A DNA stretch of 64,000 nucleotides from Escherichia coli (GTDB taxonomy: Bacteria; Pseudomonadota; Gammaproteobacteria; Enterobacterales; Enterobacteriaceae), in NCBI RefSeq assembly GCF_003019035.1, contig NZ_CP027447.1. One strand, 5' to 3'. Shown piece by piece: positions 11,855 to 62,160 of the stretch. The position numbers and the translations under genes are program-made. The notes under the pieces were generated by a model, which did no database searches, had not been told where the DNA came from, and worked only from the letters and a program-made list of their open reading frames with translations. How positions within the stretch are numbered: position 1 is the stretch's first letter; each line of letters starts with the position of its first letter.

Positions 11855-12853
11855 TTACGCGTCCGGGAACTCACGGATAAAGCGTTCGACATCTTCAACC
11901 ATATGGTCGTTGCCGACAAAGAACGAACGGCGCTGGTGCAGGGTTTCCGGGATGATATCCAGAATACGCTCTTTGCCATCGCTCGCTTTACCGCCTGCTT
12001 GTTCCGCCAGGAATGCCATCGGGTTGCACTCATACAGTAAACGCAGTTTACCGTCCGGGTGGCTGGCGGTGCTTGGGTAGAGATAAATACCGCCCTTCAG
12101 CAGGTTACGGTGGAAATCCGCGACCAGTGAACCGATATAACGTGAGGTATACGGGCGATTGGTAGACTTATCTTCTTCCTGGCAGAATTTAATGTACTTC
12201 TTCACCCCGTTCGGAAACTTAATGTAGTTTCCTTCGTTGATGGAGTAGGTTTTGCCTTTCTCCGGGAAGCGCATCCGTTCCTGGCACAGGCAGAAAACGC
12301 CCAGCGAAGGATCGTAAGTAAAGGCGTGAACACCGCATCCGGTGGTGTAAACCAGCATGGTAGAGGAGCCGTATACCACGTAACCTGCCGCAACCTGTTT
12401 GTTACCAGGCTGGAGGAAATCTTCTTCCGTTACCGGCGTGCCAACAGGTGTAACGCGGCGGTAGATGGAGAAAATGGTACCGACAGAGACGTTAACATCG
12501 ATGTTGGACGAGCCATCCAGGGGGTCCATCAGCACCACGTATTTTGCGTGTTCACAGCCTTCAAAGACGACAATCTCATCTTCTTCTTCAGAGGCAATGC
12601 CCGCAACGATATCGCGTGCTTTCAGTGCGGCTTTCAGTTTTTCATTAGCGAACAGGTCGAGTTTCTGCTGAACCTCGCCCTGCACGTTCTCAGCACCGCT
12701 GGCACCCAGGATATCAACCAGTCCTGCTTTGTTGATATCGCGATGGATAATCTTGGCGCCCAGTTTTATTGCCGACAGCAAAGCAGTGAGCTCACCGGTA
12801 GCATGAGAAAACTCGTGCTGCTTTTCGACAATAAATTCACCTAACGTTTTCAT
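11855..12853 (-). CDS. fbp: Fructose-1,6-bisphosphatase class 1, 332 aa
   Basis: Sequence [45 protein letters not shown] recognised; ORF-track start at 13036 is an upstream extension. Confidence 0.93.
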
Positions 12854-13028
12854 AAAACTTTCCCTGCAATGTTTATGGAGTAAAGCGACCGCAACAATCT
12901 TAACAAATAATCTCAATGTTGCGCTCAGGTGAATCGCGCCAGCAAATTGCGGATTATCCTGAAATGCGTTTCTCACTTGCCCGACATATGCGTAAAATGA
13001 GCGGCAGATTAAAAAAGGATAGTGACGT

Positions 13029-14402
13029 ATGCGCATTCATATTTTAGGAATTTGTGGCACGTTTATGGGCGGTCTGGCGATGCTGGCGCGCCAGTTAGGC
13101 CATGAAGTAACGGGTTCGGACGCCAATGTGTATCCGCCGATGAGCACCTTACTTGAGAAGCAAGGCATTGAACTGATTCAGGGTTACGATGCCAGCCAGC
13201 TCGAACCGCAGCCGGATCTGGTGATTATTGGCAACGCCATGACCCGTGGAAATCCGTGTGTGGAAGCGGTACTGGAAAAAAACATCCCTTATATGTCAGG
13301 TCCGCAGTGGCTGCACGATTTTGTGCTGCGCGACCGCTGGGTGCTGGCCGTTGCCGGTACACACGGCAAAACCACCACGGCGGGAATGGCGACCTGGATT
13401 CTGGAACAGTGCGGTTACAAACCAGGATTTGTGATCGGCGGTGTGCCGGGGAACTTTGAGGTCTCGGCGCGTCTGGGCGAAAGCGACTTCTTTGTTATCG
13501 AAGCGGATGAGTACGACTGCGCCTTCTTCGACAAACGCTCTAAATTTGTCCATTACTGCCCGCGTACGCTGATCCTCAACAACCTTGAGTTCGATCACGC
13601 CGATATCTTTGACGACCTGAAAGCGATCCAGAAACAGTTCCACCATCTGGTGCGTATCGTTCCGGGGCAGGGCCGTATTATCTGGCCGGAAAACGACATC
13701 AACCTGAAACAGACCATGGCGATGGGCTGCTGGAGCGAGCAGGAGCTGGTGGGCGAGCAAGGTCACTGGCAGGCGAAAAAGCTGACCACTGACGCTTCTG
13801 AATGGGAAGTCTTGCTGGATGGCGAAAAAGTGGGCGAAGTGAAATGGTCGCTGGTAGGCGAACATAATATGCACAATGGCCTGATGGCGATTGCGGCGGC
13901 TCGCCATGTTGGTGTAGCGCCGGCAGATGCCGCTAACGCGCTGGGTTCGTTTATTAACGCTCGTCGCCGTCTGGAATTGCGTGGTGAAGCAAATGGCGTC
14001 ACGGTATATGACGATTTCGCCCATCACCCGACGGCGATTCTGGCAACGCTGGCGGCGCTGCGTGGCAAAGTTGGCGGTACGGCGCGCATTATTGCTGTGC
14101 TGGAACCGCGCTCGAATACCATGAAAATGGGGATCTGCAAAGACGATCTGGCACCTTCATTAGGTCGTGCCGATGAAGTCTTCCTGCTGCAACCGGCGCA
14201 TATTCCGTGGCAGGTGGCAGAAGTGGCAGAAGCCTGCGTTCAGCCTGCACACTGGAGCGGCGATGTGGATACGCTGGCAGATATGGTGGTGAAAACCGCT
14301 CAGCCTGGCGACCATATTCTGGTGATGAGCAATGGCGGTTTTGGTGGGATCCATCAGAAACTGCTGGATGGACTGGCGAAGAAGGCGGAAGCTGCGCAGT
14401 AA
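13029..14402 (+). CDS. mpl: UDP-N-acetylmuramate:L-alanyl-gamma-D-glutamyl-meso-diaminopimelate ligase
   Basis: Mur-ligase sequence (GTHGKTTT P-loop); diverges from fbp as in K-12. Confidence 0.92.
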
Positions 14403-20251: not shown

Positions 20252-21907
20252 TTACTTCTGTAACCACCAGACAGCCTCAAAAGGCCGTAAAGTCATGGCA
20301 CAGGGTTGTGGTGAGGCTTCTTCGTAGTTATGCATCACAAGCTGCCAGTTGCCGCGCATTTTCCCTGGCTGCCAGGGTTGGGTCTCACGGCTAAGGTTGG
20401 CAATGACCAGCAAGGTTTGCCCCTTCCACTCACGGCGATAGCACCACAATACAGGGCTGTTTGGCAGCAGATCCTGGTAATCGCCCCATGTCAGGACGGC
20501 TTCTTGCTTACGCAGTGCGATTAACTTTTGGTAGGTGTAAAACACCGAGGACTCATCGGCCAGCGCTGCTTCTACGTTGATTTCCTGATAGTTATCGCCC
20601 AGGCCAATCCACGGTTCGCCAGCCGTAAACCCGGCATTATCGCCGTTGGTCCATTGCATGGGTGTGCGACTGTTGTCACGGGACTTACTGGCGAGGATTG
20701 CCAATAACTCGTCGGCATCACGCCCATCGTTGCGCAGCTCGGCAAACATATTGAGGCTCTCCACGTCGCGATAGTCAGTAATGCGCGTGAAATGTGGGTT
20801 GGTCATGCCAATCTCTTCGCCCTGGTAGATATACGGCGTTCCCTGCATGCCATGCAGCACCATCGCCAGCATTTTTGCCGCAGGCACGCGGTATTCACCT
20901 TCATCACCAAAGCGAGAAACAATGCGCGGCTGATCGTGGTTACACCAGAACAAGGCATTCCATGCCACGTTGTGCATTCCTTGTTGCCAGTGGCGGAACA
21001 ATGTTTTCAACGCCACAAAGTCAGGTTTAGCCAGCGTCCATTTCTCACCACCGGGATAATCGACCTTCAGGTGATGAAAATTAAAGGTCATCGACAATTC
21101 ACTGCCTGTCAGAGCCGCGTATCGCTGGCAATGCTCAAGGCTGGTGGAGGACATTTCACCTACGGTCATTAACCCCCGTGGCGTAAACACATCGCGGTTC
21201 ATCTCGTGCAAAAACTCGTGTGCTCGTGGCCCGTCGGTGTAGAAGCGACGCCCGTCGCCATCCAGGTCATCAGGGAAACGCGGGTCTTTGGAGATCAGAT
21301 TCACCACATCCAGGCGCAACCCGTCGACCCCACGATTGGCCCAGAACTCACAGACTTTTTTCAGCTCTGCGCGTACCGCTGGATTCTCCCAGTTGAGATC
21401 CGCCTGTTCTGGTGCAAAGAGATGCAAATAGTACTGTTCGCTTTCCGCATGCCAGCGCCACGCACTACCACCGAATTTTGAACGCCAGTTGTTCGGTGGC
21501 GTTTCTGGTTCTCCATCGCGCCAGATATAAAACTGGCGGTAAGGGCTTTCTTTGTTCAGCGCCTCGCGAAACCAGGCATGTTGGGTAGAGGTATGGTTAA
21601 ACACCATATCGAGAATGATACGAATCCCACGCGATTTTGCCTGTGTCACCAGTTCGTCAAAATCGTCCAGCGTGCCATAGGTGGGATCAATCGCCGTATA
21701 ATTCGCTACGTCGTAACCGTTATCGACCTGGGGAGAGACATAAAAGGGGGTTAGCCAGATGGCATCAACGCCCAGTTTATGCAGATAGTCCAGACGCTGG
21801 ATAACGCCACGTAAATCGCCGGTGCCGCTACCCGTGGTGTCCTGAAAACTCTTTGGATAAATCTGGTAGATAACGCCGTTTTGCCACCAGTGGGGAAGAT
21901 GAGTCAT
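20252..21907 (-). CDS. treC: Trehalose-6-phosphate hydrolase, 551 aa
   Basis: GH13 alpha-glucosidase sequence starting MTHLPHWWQNGVIYQIYPKSF; ORF-track start at 22054 overlaps treB and is too long. Confidence 0.92.
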   Translation of the reverse strand: MTHLPHWWQNGVIYQIYPKSFQDTTGSGTGDLRGVIQRLDYLHKLGVDAIWLTPFYVSPQVDNGYDVANYTAIDPTYGTLDDFDELVTQAKSRGIRIILDMVFNHTSTQHAWFREALNKESPYRQFYIWRDGEPETPPNNWRSKFGGSAWRWHAESEQYYLHLFAPEQADLNWENPAVRAELKKVCEFWANRGVDGLRLDVVNLISKDPRFPDDLDGDGRRFYTDGPRAHEFLHEMNRDVFTPRGLMTVGEMSSTSLEHCQRYAALTGSELSMTFNFHHLKVDYPGGEKWTLAKPDFVALKTLFRHWQQGMHNVAWNALFWCNHDQPRIVSRFGDEGEYRVPAAKMLAMVLHGMQGTPYIYQGEEIGMTNPHFTRITDYRDVESLNMFAELRNDGRDADELLAILASKSRDNSRTPMQWTNGDNAGFTAGEPWIGLGDNYQEINVEAALADESSVFYTYQKLIALRKQEAVLTWGDYQDLLPNSPVLWCYRREWKGQTLLVIANLSRETQPWQPGKMRGNWQLVMHNYEEASPQPCAMTLRPFEAVWWLQK

Positions 21908-21956
21908 TACGTTATTCCTGCAAATGCGAGGGGGCGCAATTGCGCCCCGAAGAAAA

Positions 21957-23378
21957 TTAAACAATGTCCAGCGTGCCCAGGCGGTATTTCCGCTGATAGA
22001 TAAACGAGGTGAGTACAATCGGGATGATGATGGCGATAGCCATTGCCAGCGCAAACACCTGCCAGTAGCTCGGTTGAATCGAGAGAATTCCCGGCAGGCC
22101 GCCTACGCCGATGCCATTCGCCATAACGCCGTTCAGGCCGCATAGCAATCCTGCCAGACCAGAACCAATCATCGCGCACAGCATCGGGAAGCGATATTTC
22201 AGGTTGATGCCGTACATTGCAGGCTCAGTGACCCCAAGCCAGGCGGAGATCGCGGCAGGCACGGAGATCTCGCGTTCATTGTGCTTGCGGCTGGAAATGA
22301 TAATGCCTATCACGGCGGAGCCCTGAGCGATATTCGACAGCGCAATCAGCGGCCACACTGGCGTGCCACCCATGCTTTGAATCATCTGCAAATCAATAGC
22401 AAGCGTGGTCTGGTGTACGCCGGTGATCACCAGTGGGGCGTACAGGAAGCCAAACAATGCCGCGCCAATCGGAGCAAAGCTGCCGGTCATCAGGTGACGT
22501 ACCGCAAAGGCAACGCCATCGCCAATCATGCGACCAAACGGACCAATCAGCGCATGGGCGAGGAACACCGCGAGGATCAGCGAACAGACGGGCACCACCA
22601 CCAGATAGAGGTAATCCGGCACGATGCGCTTAAGACGAGTTTCAATAACGCCCAGCGCCAGCCCGGCTAACAGTGCCGGGATGACCTGCGCCTGATAGCC
22701 CACTTTGGCGATGCTGAACATGCCAAAGTCCCATACTTCCGGCAGCTGCTGCCCGAGCAGATAAGCGTTCATCAGCTGGGGAGAAACCAGCGTTACGCCA
22801 AGCACGATACCAAGGATCGGCGTGCCGCCCATTTTTTTCACCGCTGACCAGCAAATCCCGACCGGTAGGTAGAAGAAGATCGCTTCACCGATCAACCACA
22901 GAAAATCGTAGATCGTTTGCAGGGAAGGGTACATTTGCGCCAGCGTTTGACCGTTGCTCATGGGCAAATCGCCGATCACATTGCGAAAACCGAGGATCAA
23001 ACCGCCGCTAATCAACGCGGGCAGCAACGGGAAGAAAATCTCCGCGAAATGAGAGATCAACTGCTCATGCCATTTCATATTCTGCCGGGCGGCTTTTTTT
23101 ACCTGCTCTTTATCAACCTGCGCCTGTCCGGTTGACGCTATCAGTGCTTGATAGTAATCACCCACGTTGGTGCCAATCACCACCTGAAATTGCCCGGCAT
23201 TGGTGAAACAGCCTTTCACCATGGGGAGTTGCTCAATTTCTTTCGGTCTGGCATTGGCCGGTTGGTTGAGGACAAAGCGCAGGCGAGTAATACAGTGGCT
23301 CACCGTCGCAATATTGCCGCGCCCGCCGACCAGTTCAATCAACCGATCGATATCCGTTTGGTTTATTTTGCTCATCAT
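21957..23378 (-). CDS. treB: PTS trehalose-specific EIIBC component
   Basis: EIIB cysteine motif (CITRLR) followed by polytopic EIIC domain; treBC operon context. Confidence 0.92.
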   Translation of the reverse strand: MMSKINQTDIDRLIELVGGRGNIATVSHCITRLRFVLNQPANARPKEIEQLPMVKGCFTNAGQFQVVIGTNVGDYYQALIASTGQAQVDKEQVKKAARQNMKWHEQLISHFAEIFFPLLPALISGGLILGFRNVIGDLPMSNGQTLAQMYPSLQTIYDFLWLIGEAIFFYLPVGICWSAVKKMGGTPILGIVLGVTLVSPQLMNAYLLGQQLPEVWDFGMFSIAKVGYQAQVIPALLAGLALGVIETRLKRIVPDYLYLVVVPVCSLILAVFLAHALIGPFGRMIGDGVAFAVRHLMTGSFAPIGAALFGFLYAPLVITGVHQTTLAIDLQMIQSMGGTPVWPLIALSNIAQGSAVIGIIISSRKHNEREISVPAAISAWLGVTEPAMYGINLKYRFPMLCAMIGSGLAGLLCGLNGVMANGIGVGGLPGILSIQPSYWQVFALAMAIAIIIPIVLTSFIYQRKYRLGTLDIV

Positions 23379-23496
23379 AAAGCCCCATGGCAGATGACAT
23401 TTTTGGTTGGCTGCAGAATATATTGCGCGGAAAAATTTAAAAACGGGAACGTTCCCGAAACGCAGCGAAGATCACAATTTATCGTTCAGGAAACGA

Positions 23497-24444
23497 TCAG
23501 GACAGGGTGGCGGGGATGATGATTTGTTGCGGTTCGCTGCGCCCGGTGACCTGCGCGATCAACTGGCAGGCCGCCTGGCGTCCAGCTTCGGCGTAACCGG
23601 GATCTACGGTGACGATCTCCGGATGGAGGAATTTCATTAACGGTGTATTACCGACGCTCGCCAGTTGCAAGGTGTCGATGCGTTGCTCTTGCAGGTATTT
23701 ACTTGCGCCAAGTGCCAGCGTGTCGGTTGCGCACAGTAACGCGGTAGTTTCAGGCGTAATCACTTTTGCTACGTTCTCATAGCCTTGCTTCATAGCAAGG
23801 CCTGGCAGAGCGGCAACGGGATGCAGTTTATGCGCTTTGCAGAACGCCAGGTAGGCTTCGTGACGTCGCTTACCGGTCGTCACGTCACTATGCGGCACGC
23901 CGAGATAACTGATATTACGATGTCCCTGGTCATACAGTCGTTGCATCAGGATCTTGATTGCCCCTTCGTCGTCATAACAGACCGAAGCAAAGCCTTTTGC
24001 GTCACGCGCCAGCAGAACCAGCGATGACTGCCAGTGGGCTAACATTTCTTCTGTTATGCCGGTAAAACCGAACAGCACTACGCCGTCGATATTACGCCGT
24101 TTCAGCACCCCCAAATGTTCGGCAACTAATTGTGGGGAAAACTGACTTTCCATCATGATTGGATCGTAACCTTGTTCATAGAACGCTGGCAGCATGGTTT
24201 GAACGGCGAGATTTTCTGACAACGAATCCAGACGGGTAACAATGATGGCGACCACTTTATCGCTTTGCCCACGCATAGCGCGCGCAGAGCGGGAAGGGGA
24301 AAATCCATGCTGATTCATCACTGCTTCAACACGCTCGCGCGTGCGCTGGCTCACGCCGCTTTCGTTATTCAGCACCCGGGAAACCGTAGATTTCCCCACG
24401 CCGCTTAAGCGCGCGATGTCTTTGATGGTCAGCCGATTTTGCAT
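23497..24444 (-). CDS. treR: Trehalose operon repressor (LacI family)
   Basis: N-terminal LacI-type HTH (TIKDIARLSGVGKSTVSRVLN); adjacent to treBC. Confidence 0.92.
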   Translation of the reverse strand: MQNRLTIKDIARLSGVGKSTVSRVLNNESGVSQRTRERVEAVMNQHGFSPSRSARAMRGQSDKVVAIIVTRLDSLSENLAVQTMLPAFYEQGYDPIMMESQFSPQLVAEHLGVLKRRNIDGVVLFGFTGITEEMLAHWQSSLVLLARDAKGFASVCYDDEGAIKILMQRLYDQGHRNISYLGVPHSDVTTGKRRHEAYLAFCKAHKLHPVAALPGLAMKQGYENVAKVITPETTALLCATDTLALGASKYLQEQRIDTLQLASVGNTPLMKFLHPEIVTVDPGYAEAGRQAACQLIAQVTGRSEPQQIIIPATLS

Positions 24445-53639: not shown

Positions 53640-53724
53640 GCCGAAGTGGCGAAATCGGTAGACGCAGTTGATTCAAAATCAACCGTAGAAATACGTGCCG
53701 GTTCGAGTCCGGCCTTCGGCACCA
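53640..53724 (+). tRNA. leuX: tRNA-Leu (anticodon CAA)
   Basis: GCCGAAGTGGCGAAATCGGTAGACGCAGTTGATTCAAAATCAACCGTAGAAATACGTGCCGGTTCGAGTCCGGCCTTCGGCACCA; anticodon loop TTCAAAA; encoded CCA end. Confidence 0.95.
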
Positions 53725-53913: not shown

Positions 53914-55161
53914 ATGGCTCTCACGGATATCAAAGTTAGGACTACCAAGCCCTCTGACAAACCCTTCAAACTTACTGATGGGCAGGGTATGCACCTCCTG
54001 GTCAACCCCAATGGTTCAAAATACTGGCGACTCCAATACCGTTTCGATGGCAAACAAAAAGTTTTAGCATTGGGTGTTTATCCAATGGTCTCTCTTGGTG
54101 AAGCTCGCAGGAAACGAGATGAGGCCAAAAAGTTGGTATCTGATGGTATCGACCCTTCCGAGAAGAAAAAAGCAGACAAGATCGAGCAGAGCGAAGCCCT
54201 GACATTCGAAGCTGTTGCAAGGGACTGGCATACTGCCTGTAAAAGGAAATGGTCAGATTCCCATAGTGAAAGGGTTTTAAAGAGCCTTGAAGACAACCTT
54301 TTCTCTTCCATAGGACAGAGAAAAATAGCCGAGCTTAAAACTAAGGATCTTCTCGAACCAGTCAAAACTGTTGCGGCTTCTGGACGACTAGAAGTAGCTG
54401 CTCGTCTGCAACAACGAACCACAGCAATCATGCGATATGCCGTCCAGAATGGCTTAATTGACTACAATCCAGCACAAGATATGTCTGGGGCAATTACAGT
54501 TGCGAAACGAACCCACAGACCAGCCTTACCATTTGATAGGTTCTCAGAGCTTTTAGAGCGCATTGAAAGCTTTAAAGGTAGGAAACTTACTAAATTAGTT
54601 GTGAAGCTGACATTGCTCATTTTTATCCGTTCCAGTGAACTCCGATTCGCAAGATGGTCGGAGATCGACTTTGAAAATGCGATGTGGACTATCCCTGGAG
54701 AACGCGAGCCATTACCAGGAGTCAAACATTCCCATCGAGGCTCAAAAATGAAGACCCCACACCTCGTGCCGTTAAGTCGTCAGGCCTTAGAACTTCTAAA
54801 AGTCATCAGAGAAATCAGCGGTGAATGCGACCTTGTATTCATTGGCGATCATGATTTCAGAAAACCTATGAGCGAAAACACAGTCAACAAGGCACTAAGG
54901 TCAATGGGTTATGACACAACCGTTGAGGTATGTGGGCATGGTTTTAGAGCAATGGCTTGTAGTGCTTTGATCGAGTCAGGAAAGTGGTCGAGAGATGCTG
55001 TTGAACGGCAGATGAGCCATCAGGAGCGGAACTCCGTTCGTGCCGCATACATTCATAAAGCTGAGCATTTGGACGAGCGTAGGTTGATGTTGCAGTGGTG
55101 GGCTGATTATCTTGATGAAACAACTAAGAGAAGAATTGCACCTTTCGATTTTAATAACTAA
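53914..55161 (+). CDS. int: P4-type tyrosine integrase (IntB-like)
   Basis: N-terminus MALTDIKVRTTKPSDKPFKLTDGQGMHLLVNPNGSKYWRLQYRFDGK typical of P4-family integrases; AGGAGG RBS; tRNA-adjacent. Confidence 0.9.
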   Translation: MALTDIKVRTTKPSDKPFKLTDGQGMHLLVNPNGSKYWRLQYRFDGKQKVLALGVYPMVSLGEARRKRDEAKKLVSDGIDPSEKKKADKIEQSEALTFEAVARDWHTACKRKWSDSHSERVLKSLEDNLFSSIGQRKIAELKTKDLLEPVKTVAASGRLEVAARLQQRTTAIMRYAVQNGLIDYNPAQDMSGAITVAKRTHRPALPFDRFSELLERIESFKGRKLTKLVVKLTLLIFIRSSELRFARWSEIDFENAMWTIPGEREPLPGVKHSHRGSKMKTPHLVPLSRQALELLKVIREISGECDLVFIGDHDFRKPMSENTVNKALRSMGYDTTVEVCGHGFRAMACSALIESGKWSRDAVERQMSHQERNSVRAAYIHKAEHLDERRLMLQWWADYLDETTKRRIAPFDFNN

Positions 55162-55230: not shown

Positions 55231-56142
55231 GTGCTATTACGAAGTAAAGCTTTTTACAACGGAGTGGCATTAATGAAATCTTGGGTAAAAATGAATAGTT
55301 GGACATCAGAAGACACCAAAGCAGTGAAAACGTGGTTTGATTTGGACAAATATCGAGAGTTTGAAAACATTTCTATTAATATGCTTTACCATGAAATATG
55401 GGCGAGAACCTATTTTTTCAAACCAGTAATAGAAGAAGGAATGCAGAACACAGTATTGAAAAATTATATGCAGATATTGGATGGTGATCCTTTTCTTATC
55501 AAAGAGAAGCACTTAAATTATATGGATGCCGAAAATAAATTATATCAACCCCCATACTTTTTTATTACTACTGTTGATCGAATAGCAAATATCAGTTTTG
55601 ATTGTATGAGAAAGGCTTTATTCATTAGAGCAAATACAGAACAATATAAAATTGATTCCACTATTGAAAATGAATATATTTCCGAAAAAATTCCTGAACA
55701 GTTTCCTACTACGATTATGTTAGAAATCGATCTTGCGGGTGGAAGCGATGATGAGATAGCTGAGGCCCTGCGAGTATCATTACCACAATGGCGAAAAGTA
55801 AAAGGCGTTAAACCTGCACCACTTGATGCAGTCAGATTTGGTTATGGGGCAATAAAAAAATTAATTAGCTATCGAATTATTCCTATGCTTGATTTGCTCG
55901 CATGGTCAGAAAGAAAAAAAGTACTTCTGTCAGACGACAGATTATCTCGATTGCTATACACGGATGAAGATGATGATAAGGCGATTCGCCAAGGATATCA
56001 TATAAGAGATGCTGATCGGCCTTTCGCAATGAAAACTGTAGAAATTGATTTTTTAAGGCAATTTAACTTTTTTATCAATAAAAATCAGCATGTTAAAGAA
56101 ATGAGGGTTTCGGATGTTATGAAACTCTCAGATTCTGAGTGA
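55231..56142 (+). CDS. Hypothetical protein (about 290-303 aa) between int and alpA
   Basis: Uninterrupted AT-rich ORF; likely true start is ATG at 55273 (GGAG 9 nt upstream); no recognisable motifs. Confidence 0.6.
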   Translation: MLLRSKAFYNGVALMKSWVKMNSWTSEDTKAVKTWFDLDKYREFENISINMLYHEIWARTYFFKPVIEEGMQNTVLKNYMQILDGDPFLIKEKHLNYMDAENKLYQPPYFFITTVDRIANISFDCMRKALFIRANTEQYKIDSTIENEYISEKIPEQFPTTIMLEIDLAGGSDDEIAEALRVSLPQWRKVKGVKPAPLDAVRFGYGAIKKLISYRIIPMLDLLAWSERKKVLLSDDRLSRLLYTDEDDDKAIRQGYHIRDADRPFAMKTVEIDFLRQFNFFINKNQHVKEMRVSDVMKLSDSE

Positions 56143-56262
56143 TATGAATATCCAGAGACTCATAGTTTCGAGCCAAGGATGGCTCTGGTGTTCGTAATCT
56201 CGCTTCATCCATTCGAAATTCATTTGTACTGTAGCCCTGTAGACACAACAGAGGACATACAC

Positions 56263-56466
56263 ATGGAAAATCAAGCTCGTCTCATCCGTTTACCAGAAGT
56301 CATGAAGAAAACTGGATTTGGTAAAGCGTGGATCTATAGGCTTATCAGCAAGGGATGTTTTCCTCAACCAGTAAAAATTGGTCTTCGTGCAGTAGCTTTT
56401 GTAGAGAGCGAAGTAGATAATTGGATCCATGAAACGATTAGTTCTTCGAGAAATAAAGTTTCTTAG
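56263..56466 (+). CDS. alpA: AlpA-family phage/island transcriptional regulator (67 aa)
   Basis: MENQARLIRLPEVMKKTGFGKAWIYRLISKGCFPQPVKIGLRAVAFVESEVDNWI is the AlpA/Prophage_CP4-57 HTH signature; GAGGA RBS. Confidence 0.85.
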   Translation: MENQARLIRLPEVMKKTGFGKAWIYRLISKGCFPQPVKIGLRAVAFVESEVDNWIHETISSSRNKVS

Positions 56467-56913
56467 AAAATAAATAAAGAATATTAACACAAATTGTTAG
56501 ACTTTATGGTTGATGTTAATTAAGAGACGATTATGGTATATTAATATAATTTATGAGGTTGAATCCATTTTAAAAAATGGGGTAATAAAAAGGGGCTGTT
56601 TAGAAGCAATTACGCATTGTTATTCTAAATATGAACTAATTAATTATAAAATATCTTTTTTATTTTAAAATGATTATTGTGGTTCTTTCTTCAAATGTCA
56701 ATTTCCTTAACCTATTAAATTAGTGGATCACCGTAATGTATAAGAGTGAACCGTTTGTATTAGATTTTACTTATGAATATTTAGTCGTTTTCACTCAGGC
56801 ATCAAATTGTTGATGAATATATGTTGATTTTGATTCAAAACGAAATAGTCTATTTCTTATACATTTGATATAAAGGGTTATATTGGTATGCTGTACATCA
56901 GAAATGATATGCT

Positions 56914-57168
56914 TTATTTGTTTTTCGCTAATGCTACATATCGTCTATAATATGCAATTGCGCTATATTTTGTCGTATTCATTTTTTCAGCAACTTCTTT
57001 CCATTTTAAACCTGATGATCTTAGTTCAAAAGCAAGCTTTCTTTTTTCAGTTGCTACCCTTTCGTAATTCTCACGGCTAATGCCGTAATATTTTATCACT
57101 GTTGAACGAGATACACCTGCAGCCTTAGCTAAGTCTTTTGCTTTAATTAATTTCCCATGAATTATCAT
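56914..57168 (-). CDS. Small HTH DNA-binding protein (84 aa)
   Basis: HTH-like segment (KAKDLAKAAGVSRSTVIKYY); overlaps the stop of the upstream rep gene by 4 bp. Confidence 0.55.
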   Translation of the reverse strand: MIIHGKLIKAKDLAKAAGVSRSTVIKYYGISRENYERVATEKRKLAFELRSSGLKWKEVAEKMNTTKYSAIAYYRRYVALAKNK

Positions 57169-58013
57169 AATAATGCCTCCAATGCTATTTCTAATTTTTT
57201 TTGCGTTTTTCTTGTTTTTTTTGCTCTTATTGATTGTATTGTCGAAAATTTCTGAATTGAAAAATTACGCCATGTCCATTTACAAATACTGCTACAAATT
57301 TGTTTTGTCTCTTCATGAGATAATGGATTATGAGGGTTGCTATGATTATTAAGTAAAGTCGCTTTTGATAGCATATCATAAAAAAAACAACGATAGTTTT
57401 TACGTTTTTTAAAACTTAATACTTCTTTATAAGCAATAATTCTTAAATCTTCGAATAAGTTAACGTTGCGGCCCAACCCATGTATAACACTTTTCTTTTT
57501 ACTCGAAATTCTTATTTTGTCTGGGATAAAATCTAAGAGGTATTGTAGATCATATGCTGAAGTATTTGTCCATGTCGTTCTCCATTCATGAATGTTGAGA
57601 GGGTTTTTCATTAAAACATCAGCATAAGCTCTGTCTGCATCTAACCTTTCTGTAAATCCACTCTGAACAATAGCGGCCAATTTTAAAGGCTTATCTCTTG
57701 CCATGTCTGTTTTTAATACCGGATTTTTTAAAGCATAAAGTAAATGAGCATGGCCATTTTTTATGTTTTGTATGATCGTATTTGGTATTGGTAAACCAAC
57801 TAAGTCCCATGCGACCGCTCCATATTTGTGATCTATATCAAAAACCAAACCGTTAATAAAAGATTTGTTATTAAAACAAATATATTTCTTTAGAAGGGCT
57901 TTGTCTTTAGGGGCTCTGTATACCCCATCTCTAAAATCATCACAGCATAAAGCATATTTTTGAATTTGCAGCTTGTATTTTTCTACATTATATATATTTT
58001 CGTCATTTAACAT
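57165..58013 (-). CDS. Putative replication initiation protein (plasmid/satellite Rep-like), 282 aa
   Basis: Family-level resemblance to plasmid replicase/primase-type initiators, recalled from memory; flanked by AT-rich non-coding DNA. Confidence 0.45.
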   Translation of the reverse strand: MLNDENIYNVEKYKLQIQKYALCCDDFRDGVYRAPKDKALLKKYICFNNKSFINGLVFDIDHKYGAVAWDLVGLPIPNTIIQNIKNGHAHLLYALKNPVLKTDMARDKPLKLAAIVQSGFTERLDADRAYADVLMKNPLNIHEWRTTWTNTSAYDLQYLLDFIPDKIRISSKKKSVIHGLGRNVNLFEDLRIIAYKEVLSFKKRKNYRCFFYDMLSKATLLNNHSNPHNPLSHEETKQICSSICKWTWRNFSIQKFSTIQSIRAKKTRKTQKKLEIALEALL

Positions 58014-58561
58014 TTATAATCTCCTTATTGTATTCTCCATTTTATTGTATTTTTCTAAAAAGGAGATGCATATTATTTTTATAATTATTTAATAAGGGAT
58101 TTTAAAAGTTTGTCAAGTGTCTAAAAGCCATATCAGATATTAGGTGTTTCTTTTAGGGTTATAATAACAAGAGGGAGGTGCTTCAATGACAATATAAATG
58201 ATGATAGTTTTTTTTAAGTGCAGCTCATAAATCATTATGGCATATTGTAATATGATTACTTTTTATCTGATTAAAAGTAAATATCGATCGCAGATCTTTT
58301 AATTTAATTGTTAATTCAATAATCTGGTCTTGTCAAATTTTCATGGTTAAACTTCAACTTCCTTTATATACAAATCAGATATTTTAAATTTATAACAACA
58401 ATATTTGTAAGCCATAGGAGATATAGAATGTATAAGTTAATTTTTTTTCCAGTTAATACCTGTGATTGTTTTTATTTTGGCGATATAGTTCATTACTTGA
58501 CAATTTAAAAAAAGAATATATAAGTATTTAGATTGATATAGTTAAATTTAAGGATGGTACC

Positions 58562-58975
58562 ATGCAAAATACAAAGCTTAATATTATGGAGCGATATTTG
58601 ATACTGCTCGATAAGTTTGTCGATAAAATTATCGAATCAGGCGTTTCTGAACAACAATTGATCGAGAAGTCGTATCTGTTCTGTGCAGGGTATTATATTA
58701 AGTACCAGCAAGAAATTGAAAGGCTGACATTCTCAAATAAAGATGTCGTTTTAACATTTCTATTATTTTCATACTACAATTATATTAATGAGTTAGATAA
58801 TAATTTAATTAACAAAGTAAGGATGAGGAGAACATGTTCATTACTTATTAATTTCATTGTCGATAATGGTAGTCAGACAGAAAAAATTTATGTGCAGGAA
58901 AAAAAGAAGTACAAATCTTATACATTGAAAAGGGATTTATCAGTAAAGAATAAAAGGAAAAAATATGGTTTATAA
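58562..58975 (+). CDS. Hypothetical protein, 137 aa
   Basis: ORF with AAGGA RBS; AT-rich; basic C-terminus. Confidence 0.5.
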   Translation: MQNTKLNIMERYLILLDKFVDKIIESGVSEQQLIEKSYLFCAGYYIKYQQEIERLTFSNKDVVLTFLLFSYYNYINELDNNLINKVRMRRTCSLLINFIVDNGSQTEKIYVQEKKKYKSYTLKRDLSVKNKRKKYGL

Positions 58976-60249: not shown

Positions 60250-61518
60250 CTAAAATCTACATGTAAGGTGGTAATGTTGCCTTGGCGGCACTAAATTGCC
60301 GTCAAGTAAAGGCTCCACAAAAGTGTTTTTGGGATTGATGGGATGGATTTCTATCTTCATCGCTTCAGTGATGACTTGGTGCTTTGCGGGGCGTCTAAGA
60401 ATTGGGATTTTAAGTTGTCTCAGCAGACGATAAATCGTATCAAGGTAAGGGATGGTTTCCATCCATCTGAATGCTGAGACCTCGTAGCTTTGATTAGGCA
60501 TCTCTTTTACGGCTATAGTAGCTATCGCTTTCTTACTCCCTGCTAAAGCTTCCGAGGAACACTTCTCTTCTACATAAGCGACAGCACTTTCGTCTTTACC
60601 TGCATGCCTATCAATAATAAAAGCTTCGAAGGAGTTTTTAACGTTTTCCTTTAATATTTCGTTTGGATTCGCTTTAGTGATAGTTGCTTTTAGGTCAAAC
60701 AGAAAGCCGTTATCGCGTTCTGGTCTATAATCGAGTTTACCCTGCAAGGTCGACCATGAATAACACTTAGCTAATTGCGAAGCTTTGAAAGCAATCCCGG
60801 CGTATTCGAATGAGAAACCATTCATTTTACCTGTAGATGTGATATTGGGTAATGCATTAATATTTTGTTCAAAAAGCTGTTGGACAAACTCAGTGGTCGA
60901 TACTCTTTTAGAAACTAACGTCTCTAAAGCGTTCTGGATGATGGTTTTTGGGCATTGTTCACCTGTCCTTTTCTCTTGCATCGCTTCATTTCGTGTTTTT
61001 TTTCGTTTTAGTTTAGGGCAGGGCAATGCTAAAGAGGTTTTTGTTTTAGGGCCTTTGGTTCTTAGTAGCGAATAGTCGTGTTCAAGCTGTTGGATAATGC
61101 GTGTACTAATCAGGTTTTCATTTTTTCCGAGATAGAGTTTGCCTGTAATACGGTCTATGCGGCTGGCGATAATGTGGATGTGTTGACCGACCGCATCGTC
61201 ATGCAACACGTAGCATCTGAGATGCGTTTCCGAGAAGCCGATGCGCTTCATATAGTCATCAGCTATAGCGGACCACTGAGCATCGGTTAGCACTTCGTCC
61301 TTTGGTAAACGAAGCGAATTGTGCCAAACAGGTTTATCCACATCAGGGCGAAGCGTTTTTGTTAGATTGAATTCAGTGATCAGATCTTTCGCTGCACACC
61401 CATCCATATTTCCCCCGATCACGACAGGAGCTACCCTATGATGAGAATCTGGTTTTAACGTATAGAGGACGATCCCGATAAAATTCTTACCTCTGCGGAT
61501 CTTTTGCATTCCCTTCAT
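60250..61518 (-). CDS. Mobilization relaxase (MobA/VirD2-type), about 422 aa
   Basis: Histidine-triad-like motif HDDAVGQHIHIIASRID typical of relaxases; ATG at 61518 with GGGGAG RBS, overlapping mobC 3' end; track ORF starts at an upstream TTG. Confidence 0.75.
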   Translation of the reverse strand: MKGMQKIRRGKNFIGIVLYTLKPDSHHRVAPVVIGGNMDGCAAKDLITEFNLTKTLRPDVDKPVWHNSLRLPKDEVLTDAQWSAIADDYMKRIGFSETHLRCYVLHDDAVGQHIHIIASRIDRITGKLYLGKNENLISTRIIQQLEHDYSLLRTKGPKTKTSLALPCPKLKRKKTRNEAMQEKRTGEQCPKTIIQNALETLVSKRVSTTEFVQQLFEQNINALPNITSTGKMNGFSFEYAGIAFKASQLAKCYSWSTLQGKLDYRPERDNGFLFDLKATITKANPNEILKENVKNSFEAFIIDRHAGKDESAVAYVEEKCSSEALAGSKKAIATIAVKEMPNQSYEVSAFRWMETIPYLDTIYRLLRQLKIPILRRPAKHQVITEAMKIEIHPINPKNTFVEPLLDGNLVPPRQHYHLTCRF

Positions 61519-61924
61519 CGGAGTCTCCCCACAAGTCGGCGGTGATGAGATGTAAGCGAAGATCGGCAATTTGTCGCTTCACTGCAAATAGTTCCGTTTT
61601 TGTCAGGTGGCTTCCGGTACTTTTGTTATCAAGGTGGGCAACAATTTTATTTAGTTTCTGTGAAAGGTCAGCTAAAGATCTCCATGCTTTTATATTAATA
61701 GCTGGAACAACACCAGGAAGCGCATTAAGAAAAGATAAACGAAGCCATTCCCCTTTGCGATGCTGGCCACGTTTTTCATTTAGAAGCGTCAGCTCTTTAT
61801 CATTAAGCCTGACACTGACGCAATGATTACGAATTTGCTTGCGTGAAAGCTTCGTTTCGCAAGAGCTTCTACAGGAAGCTCGCGTATTTATAATAGTCTT
61901 ATTGAAATTATTATTACTGACCAT
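61487..61924 (-). CDS. mobC: MobC-type mobilization accessory protein (145 aa)
   Basis: Characteristic RLNDKELTLLNEKRGQ... segment directly upstream of the relaxase; AAGAGG RBS. Confidence 0.7.
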   Translation of the reverse strand: MVSNNNFNKTIINTRASCRSSCETKLSRKQIRNHCVSVRLNDKELTLLNEKRGQHRKGEWLRLSFLNALPGVVPAINIKAWRSLADLSQKLNKIVAHLDNKSTGSHLTKTELFAVKRQIADLRLHLITADLWGDSDEGNAKDPQR

Positions 61925-62084: not shown

Positions 62085-62160
62085 TTAGCCCTTGCTTTAA
62101 CAATATTGACCAAAATCTCTTTTTAATATAAAATGAATCCTAAGAGGGATGGAGGTATAC

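Follow-up and report, generated by a model that had tools for sequence, protein, structure and literature searches.

The window analysed here, a stretch of 64,000 nucleotides, is E. coli chromosome, with its idn-ahr region being 99.3% identical to many E. coli genomes. It holds an island at the tRNA gene leuX, whose genes run in the order integrase, DUF6387, AlpA, HTH/rep, two genes without an assigned function, a relaxase gene with an overlapping ORF, and cargo. The island runs past the end of the window at 64000, and attR and the rest of a defence system lie outside it. The features are as follows, where the minus strand is that of rep.

53640 to 53724, plus strand: tRNA-Leu(CAA) gene leuX, integration site of the island and its left junction, attL (ARAGORN, Rfam)
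53914 to 55161, plus strand: P4-type tyrosine integrase (Pfam Arm-DNA-bind_3, Phage_int_M and Phage_integrase; E=1e-28, 4.5e-28 and 3e-21)
55231 to 56142, plus strand: DUF6387 protein of the integrase module (Pfam PF19924, E=3e-78; phrog_23422)
56179 to 56466, plus strand: AlpA-family HTH protein, likely excision regulator or excisionase (Pfam Phage_AlpA, E=1e-19)
56467 to 56913, no strand: AT-rich spacer (25.1% GC) towards which alpA and the HTH gene converge, with nothing origin-like or conserved
56914 to 57168, minus strand: 84-aa protein with two HTH motifs and a sigma-region-4-like C-terminal half, putative RepB-like DNA-binding partner of the initiator
57165 to 58013, minus strand: Rep, ColE2-family initiator-primase with an N-terminal AEP domain and a C-terminal PriCT/ColE2 Rep DNA-binding domain
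58014 to 58084, minus strand: rep leader, with Shine-Dalgarno AAGGAG (58026-58021) and a hairpin (arms 58066-58058 and 43-34)
58111 to 58119, minus strand: CACTTGACA, its TTGACA invariant in all relatives (upstream alignment); putative rep -35 or second protein-binding element of the origin
58127 to 58143, plus strand: predicted origin and Rep-binding core GCCATATCAGATATTAG, with the palindrome ATATCAGATAT and an AGA triplet at 58135-58137
58144 to 58561, no strand: distal, island-specific part of the upstream AT-rich spacer (88% identical to L001, unshared with plasmids), presumably containing the promoter of the divergent 137-aa gene
58562 to 58975, plus strand: 137-aa backbone protein, 73% identical to the homologue in mutS-type islands
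60250 to 61569, minus strand: MobA/VirD2-type relaxase, 422 aa from the PGAP start (Pfam PF03432, E=1e-24; a relaxase in L001 as well)
61487 to 61924, minus strand: 145-aa ORF overlapping the relaxase gene on its upstream side, by this gene arrangement a putative relaxosome accessory protein
62149 to 62724, plus strand: cargo gene of the sce7726 family (NCBIfam sce7726, E=9e-44)
62707 to 63822, minus strand: PD-Lambda-2_C-like cargo gene (PADLOC PD-Lambda-2_C, E=3e-47)

The initial annotation had described a 282-aa ORF overlapping an 84-aa HTH ORF, and both are real and as it had described them. The rep ORF starts with an ATG preceded by AAGGAG and the HTH ORF with an ATG preceded by GGAGG, the two overlapping by 4 bp (ATGA). 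Moreover, PGAP also calls both genes in the sister island that E. coli S19-651 carries. The AT-rich flanks described with them were also borne out: the spacer upstream of rep (58014-58561) is 548 bp long with 24.1% GC and that downstream of the HTH gene (56467-56913) is 447 bp long with 25.1% GC, the island as a whole having 35.6% and the chromosomal DNA of the window 51.1%. Both spacers also exceed in length the six other gaps between island genes that were measured (69-317 bp). Their description as ORF-free is true in practice, the longest ORFs within the spacers being 52 aa (TTG start, 56510-56668) and 39 aa, whilst a 65-aa TTG ORF at 56883-57080 (plus strand) is merely antisense and runs into the HTH gene. 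Such ORF-poverty is to be expected in DNA this rich in AT and therefore carries no weight by itself.

The larger protein had been put forward as a putative replication initiator, with an HMM search of initiator families as the proposed check, and this assignment was confirmed. Rep scores 105 bits against Pfam Replicase PF03090, far over the cutoff of 26, and falls slightly under the threshold for PriCT_1, whilst residues 180-274 match PDB 3VW4, the DNA-binding domain of ColE2-P9 Rep solved with its origin (E=5e-5). Among 40 homologues, D59, D61 and H90 are invariant and D127, K136 and N137 almost so. Rep thus combines PF03090 with the DxD, sxH and hD motifs of an AEP primase and carries a C-terminal PriCT-1 or origin-binding domain of the ColE2-P9 Rep type; on these profile and motif matches it is shown to be an AEP-primase initiator with a ColE2-type origin-binding domain. 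ColE2 Rep itself acts as a primase specific to its origin, making a short RNA primer from which DNA polymerase I continues synthesis (PMC4538821). Homologues of Rep are found on about 3000 plasmids in PLSDB, the closest (61-70% identity) being enterobacterial plasmids of 4-5 kb.

With regard to the element that carries the gene pair, an integrase and a putative directionality factor were found, the true start of alpA probably lying near 56263, which would give a 67-aa product like that of PGAP's 204-bp gene in L001. In the sister island L001, 18 bp of the tRNA 3′ end (GTTCGAGTCCGGCCTTCG) are found again 11.8 kb downstream as a direct repeat, which represents attR. The element has a relaxase gene and lacks type IV secretion genes, 0/13 genes of the complete L001 island coding for T4SS components. 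The 137-aa protein had no family match in Pfam, NCBIfam, PHROGs or PADLOC, nor did the 145-aa ORF have a significant one in Pfam or NCBIfam. The cargo matches components C and B of the PD-Lambda-2 anti-phage system by profile, the latter through the ImmA/IrrE protein of L001 (PD-Lambda-2_B, PADLOC E=2e-47). A collinear island, with 96.5% identity, occupies the same site in 3/5426 complete E. coli genomes.

An integrase, AlpA and a primase-type rep within about 12 kb at a tRNA gene would also suit a phage satellite (PICI or PICMI-like) whose Rep amplifies the element once a helper phage induces it; relatives of several of its proteins are found in PHROGs, and a likeness to PICIs had been suggested at the outset. 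That likeness did not survive. Searches of the island with Pfam and PHROGs found no homologues of terminase, capsid, portal or packaging-redirection genes, the element carries a relaxase and the accessory ORF upstream of it, and the closest relatives of Rep are on MOBQ mobilizable plasmids and not on phages or satellites. We therefore consider a phage satellite very improbable. Given a relaxase and no packaging genes, the host element is, by its gene content, an integrative mobilizable element (IME) of ~11.8 kb at leuX, and not a PICI.

The small HTH gene is an obligate genomic partner of rep: in every relative examined, rep is directly followed by a gene encoding 84-90 aa, either overlapping or no more than 5 bp away. 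Moreover, natural Rep-HTH fusions exist as four database proteins of about 355 aa, and the 84-aa protein aligns end to end with their C-terminal domain (E=4e-6), with 11 invariant residues and zero internal gaps. Its sigma-4/DeoR fold resembles that of a transcription factor. From these fusions, together with the gene linkage and the fold, we infer that the 84-aa protein would be a DNA-binding subunit of the initiator. Comparison of pAL5000 RepB with its sigma-4-like half gave a weak match over 49 columns (E=4e-4, probability 36%). We also considered whether the protein is the detached HTH tail of ColE2 Rep, that is, a split gene. This was rejected, as clean tests detected no homology between the protein and that tail, which lies at the C-terminus of ColE2 Rep; an early apparent match had used a profile that itself included the tail and was thus circular. 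What stands of the split-gene idea is a positional analogy together with the fusion proteins, and not a demonstrated homology.

Next we consider where this initiator might act. The flanks had been proposed to contain an origin, with a search for iterons as the check. No iterons were found in either flank, the only direct repeats being two-copy ones at chance level and TRF finding nothing in the spacers; DnaA boxes (≤1 mismatch) are likewise lacking from the non-coding flanks, and a scan of Rfam gave no RNA family above chance besides the tRNA. An iteron-type origin, with at least 3 direct repeats of about 17-22 bp and DnaA boxes in AT-rich DNA, is therefore rejected for both flanks. Instead, a single ColE2-like site was found. 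For comparison, the ColE2 origin TGAGACCAGATAAGCCTTATCAGATAACAGCGCC, which overlaps the rep stop codon, was read from a plasmid whose Rep is 100% identical to the crystallised domain. The sequence GCCATATCAGATATTAG at 58127-58143 shares 14/17 positions with the core of the ColE2 origin, GCCTTATCAGATAACAG, and is the single best match in the 10.3-kb island, a score attained by 3/200 shuffles. It is read on the strand opposite to rep, and 114 bp separate it from the rep ATG downstream. When the related elements L002, L007 and L011 were probed with the ColE2 core, the top match lay at the equivalent place, and that of L007 (15/17) was reached by 0/200 shuffles. The palindrome ATATCAGATAT corresponds to TTATCAGATAA of ColE2 and the AGA triplet to the primer of ColE2 (ppApGpA), so that at the sequence level this would be a single, short, iteron-free origin of the ColE2 type.

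The 12-mer TATCTGATATGG (rep-sense) occurs exactly in 13/14 related plasmids and islands, with one mismatch in the remaining L008, and only once in the 64-kb window; the closest plasmid, pKAM621_5, has a core identical at 17/17 positions. In the 14 related elements the core always starts 126-176 nt ahead of the rep ATG and is antisense to rep, with TTGACA 11-15 nt past it in every one. Both core and TTGACA are kept in elements whose Reps share as little as about 40% identity and whose DNA around the site cannot be aligned. Between the two leuX islands compared, the rep-HTH-core module is 97.4% identical as against about 88% for both outer spacers. A second, degenerate core at 58409-58424 was discarded as it is unconserved in L001, and CAGATAA-like words at about 58265 and 58325 are either unconserved in L001 or at chance level.

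Of the two flanks, then, the upstream one stood as an origin site, with a ColE2-like core in 14/14 relatives, and the downstream one did not. The downstream spacer is conserved only in the sister island L001 (88.5%, compared with 96.5% island-wide) and is missing from the plasmid relatives, where the HTH gene is followed by less than 50 bp of non-coding sequence. On this pattern of conservation, a core in one spacer and no conserved feature in the other, the origin likely lies in the upstream flank and not in the downstream flank.

The origin of ColE2 lies immediately downstream of rep (PMC6856555), and a conserved core upstream of rep could therefore be only an operator at which Rep and/or the HTH protein autoregulate at the -35, the origin being elsewhere, for example in the downstream spacer or within rep. 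The core does adjoin the invariant TTGACA, and the transcription-factor-like fold of the HTH protein would suit such a role. However, the plasmid relatives scarcely have a downstream spacer and that of the island is unconserved beyond the sister island. The island contains no ColE2-origin-like sequence other than this core, and the site also scores highest in the three related elements probed. Moreover, the origin of pAL5000 is placed upstream of repA. We thus judge an operator without an origin to be unlikely and favour the upstream core as the candidate origin.

The region between core and rep may also bear on control. The invariant TTGACA is followed by TA-rich hexamers at 16-17 nt; on consensus alone this weakly suggests a rep promoter, and a simple promoter scan scored no complete promoter at 58116. 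Folding of the window sequence shows that the 5′ arm of the leader hairpin can pair alternatively with an upstream GGAGA or with the Shine-Dalgarno sequence. An equivalent, stronger hairpin with different arm sequences is found in the leaders of most relatives, MAFFT and RNAalifold gave no consensus structure for these leaders, and a covariation test failed on the alignment. In ColE2, an antisense RNA on the leader controls rep (PMC6856555). A search for an RNAI-like counterpart here gave antisense promoter-like sites only in two closely related plasmids (L003 and L006); the terminator scan cannot score loops of this length.

The module is not confined to leuX. Long chromosomal contigs of Klebsiella, Salmonella, Pectobacterium, Cronobacter and Cedecea encode close homologues of Rep (65-72% identity), and of the 12 matches to the module in E. 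coli, 10 are in the chromosome. The module is carried by at least three more types of island. A mutS-adjacent type has another integrase and ThiF/MPN cargo, and there the rep-HTH cassette faces the other way with respect to the 137-aa and relaxase genes. A Klebsiella element of 7.6 kb was found in three chromosomal contexts, in two of which a tRNA-Phe gene lies beside the integrase, and an island with RT+AAA cargo also carries the module. Contig L018 (7.5 kb, with int and rep) was considered as an excised circle and dismissed, as it ends in the start of mutS.

Could the module be inert baggage, a relic of a small plasmid that recombined into the island? The island is rare, as noted above, PLSDB records no free plasmid form of either the leuX island or its Klebsiella relative, and rep is frameshifted in the related island of E. 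coli NMBU-W10C18, so its function is dispensable at least sometimes. Nevertheless, across diverged integrated copies both genes are under purifying selection, with dN/dS of 0.10-0.23 for rep and pN/pS of 0.18-0.54 for the HTH gene. Moreover, all islands examined have kept core and TTGACA intact, the module is better conserved than its flanks, and in several genera it is found alongside integrases and cargo in four different combinations. We consider a relic quite unlikely.

Our preferred reading is that the ~11.8-kb IME at leuX probably carries in this region a theta-type replicon of the ColE2/pAL5000 family that is still intact. By homology to ColE2, Rep together with the HTH protein would bind the single palindromic core within GCCATATCAGATATTAG, melt it and use the AGA triplet to make a very short RNA primer. 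Host DNA polymerase I would then extend this primer, so that replication would be unidirectional and directed away from rep. As the core lies 11 nt from the invariant TTGACA, binding of the initiator probably autoregulates rep transcription too, and the leader hairpin may give a post-transcriptional control similar to that of ColE2. By analogy with SGI1, the replicon would be silent or harmless whilst the island is integrated; after excision by Int and AlpA it would prevent loss of the circle and raise its copy number, and mobilization by the relaxase with a helper conjugative plasmid may follow. Replication after excision is the most plausible role by the SGI1 precedent (PMC7433901).

More tentatively, these elements may belong to an undescribed chassis of small replicative IMEs of Enterobacterales, which would swap integrases (leuX, tRNA-Phe, mutS-adjacent) and anti-phage systems (PD-Lambda-2-like, ThiF/MPN, RT+AAA) around an origin built into the rep promoter, the sigma-4-like HTH subunit reading CACTTGACA and Rep binding the core. 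We regard this as possible though doubtful. If true, rep transcription and origin firing would be mechanically coupled, in a layout unlike that of ColE2.

Among known systems, ColE2-P9 and ColE3, with a Rep primase and a 32-bp ori, share with the module a Rep that aligns over its full length (about 30% identity) with common AEP motifs, an origin candidate that has the palindromic core (T/A)TATCAGATA(A/T) and AGA, and freedom from iterons and DnaA boxes. In contrast to ColE2, the candidate origin here is upstream of rep and inverted, only one of the two CAGATAA repeats of ColE2 is present, and Rep ends before the C-terminal HTH tail, with a separate two-HTH protein instead. In these respects, the position and orientation of the origin, the lack of a tail and the separate HTH partner, the module resembles pAL5000 of Mycolicibacterium fortuitum (NZ_M60875.1) rather than ColE2. 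There too a small DNA-binding protein, RepB, is encoded right after RepA, and RepA matches this Rep family with an hhalign probability of 99.4% (E=3e-21). Replication of pAL5000 needs both proteins, RepB binding palindromic sequences of the origin (PMC7157519). It is, however, a high-GC actinobacterial plasmid, and the homology to its RepB is marginal at the probability of 36% given above.

Like SGI1, the leuX element is an IME with an integrase, a likely RDF, mobilization genes and a dedicated rep. Huguet et al. 2020 found that SGI1 replicates only after excision, from its own rep and an iteron oriV (PMC7433901). The Rep of SGI1 is, however, of the RepA_C type with an iteron/DnaA-box oriV, and SGI1 sits at trmE under the control of IncC AcaCD; the element at leuX differs also in its integrase and relaxase and in carrying defence cargo in place of resistance. 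Closer in their initiators are the SGI1-like islands GIVchO27-1 and GISen-26, whose Rep is PF03090 + PriCT-1 and whose oriV "remains to be characterized" (PMC7433901, PMC8409611). With replicative IMEs and such islands published, an IME with this Rep family is of a known kind.

A further likeness is to the enterobacterial rep+HTH plasmids of ~4-5 kb, mostly MOBQ (pKAM621_5, pB16EC0262-4 and pWW19C-6), which have the same two-gene module with Reps 40-70% identical, the same distance and orientation of the core and the same TTGACA, the 17-mer of pKAM621_5 being identical; they differ in being free and in lacking an integrase. The searchable literature held no functional study of their origins, and the assignment made here is a prediction for them likewise. 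What is gained is a concrete origin prediction, a 17-bp core beside an invariant TTGACA, and no new category is opened. Mobilizable islands that bear a replicon can, like SGI1, survive as circles, gain copy number and interfere with helper plasmids. The E. coli case would link a ColE2/pAL5000-family replicon to a relaxase and anti-phage cargo, and the same module occurs with other integrases and defence systems in Klebsiella, Salmonella, Pectobacterium and Cronobacter. The predicted origin addresses a Rep family whose oriV the SGI1 literature left uncharacterized, and would extend to the widespread ~4-kb rep+HTH plasmids.

The rep-HTH-137-aa-relaxase backbone is common to the leuX island of the window and to three further islands (L009, L010 and L018) located beside mutS, all of which carry an integrase of 487 aa that is unlike that of the leuX island. 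The position of two of these is as follows:

ygbA-mutS interval of E. coli: L009 and L010

Cargo differs by island, with ThiF and MPN genes in L009 and L010, and a reverse transcriptase and an AAA ATPase in L018. That one backbone carries another integrase, site and cargo in these islands suggests that it serves defence systems as a modular chassis. In L010, from E. coli NMBU-W10C18, the annotation gives rep (12252-13105) as frameshifted; upstream of it, the predicted origin core and its adjoining TTGACA hexamer are both intact.

The 137-aa protein is 73% identical between island types (window 58562-58975 versus L009 11430-11843), and the orientation of the rep-HTH cassette relative to its gene is inverted between the window island and L009. 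Judged by this inversion, the replicon behaves as a discrete, invertible module. Rep and its HTH partner are naturally fused in a single polypeptide of about 355 aa in four database proteins (P0059, P0061, P0062 and P0073), whose domains are PF03090 and Sigma70_r4 and whose contigs span 13-41 kb.

A promoter scan placed the best promoter-like site of the region in the downstream spacer:

56701..56673 (-): TTGACA-17-AATAAT, 11/12

This site reads towards alpA on the opposite strand, entering the gene at its 3′ end, so an antisense transcript against this likely excision regulator could be produced. In the rep leader (58034-58066 and 58021-58026, minus strand), TCTCCTTTT has two alternative pairing partners, AAAATGGAGA and the rep Shine-Dalgarno AAGGAGA, and a translational switch is a possible outcome. 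The leader hairpins of relatives are stronger, with compensated arm sequences.

An identical element of ~7.6 kb from Klebsiella was found at the same coordinates of three loci, L011, L012 and L013:

3858-11459: integrase, MobA_MobL relaxase, rep, HTH and alpA

A tRNA-Phe gene adjoins the integrase in 2/3 of the neighbourhoods. Since the identical copies occupy three different chromosomal neighbourhoods, recent mobility of the element is suggested. L015, an 8238-bp Logan contig without an integrase, carries rep-HTH (Rep 70% identical) and the exact core, and its termini overlap by 23 bp; from its sequence it may be a circular plasmid bridging the plasmid and island lineages. The leuX locus of E. 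coli S19-651 carries tandem islands, and a second integrase with a kinase/HerA-helicase gene cluster lies directly after the attR of the sister island (L001 24334-25599 and beyond).

Lastly, one block of cargo is shared by the window and this sister island:

62149-63822, extending beyond 64000 (L001 counterpart 21314-23865): PD-Lambda-2-like cargo

Alongside these genes lie a GNAT gene and a neighbouring sce7726-family gene. Two proteins match components of one system: PD-Lambda-2_B for the ImmA/IrrE protein (E=2e-47) and PD-Lambda-2_C for the ‘beta family’ protein (E=3e-47). By protein similarity, the island cargo resembles the PD-Lambda-2 anti-phage system.
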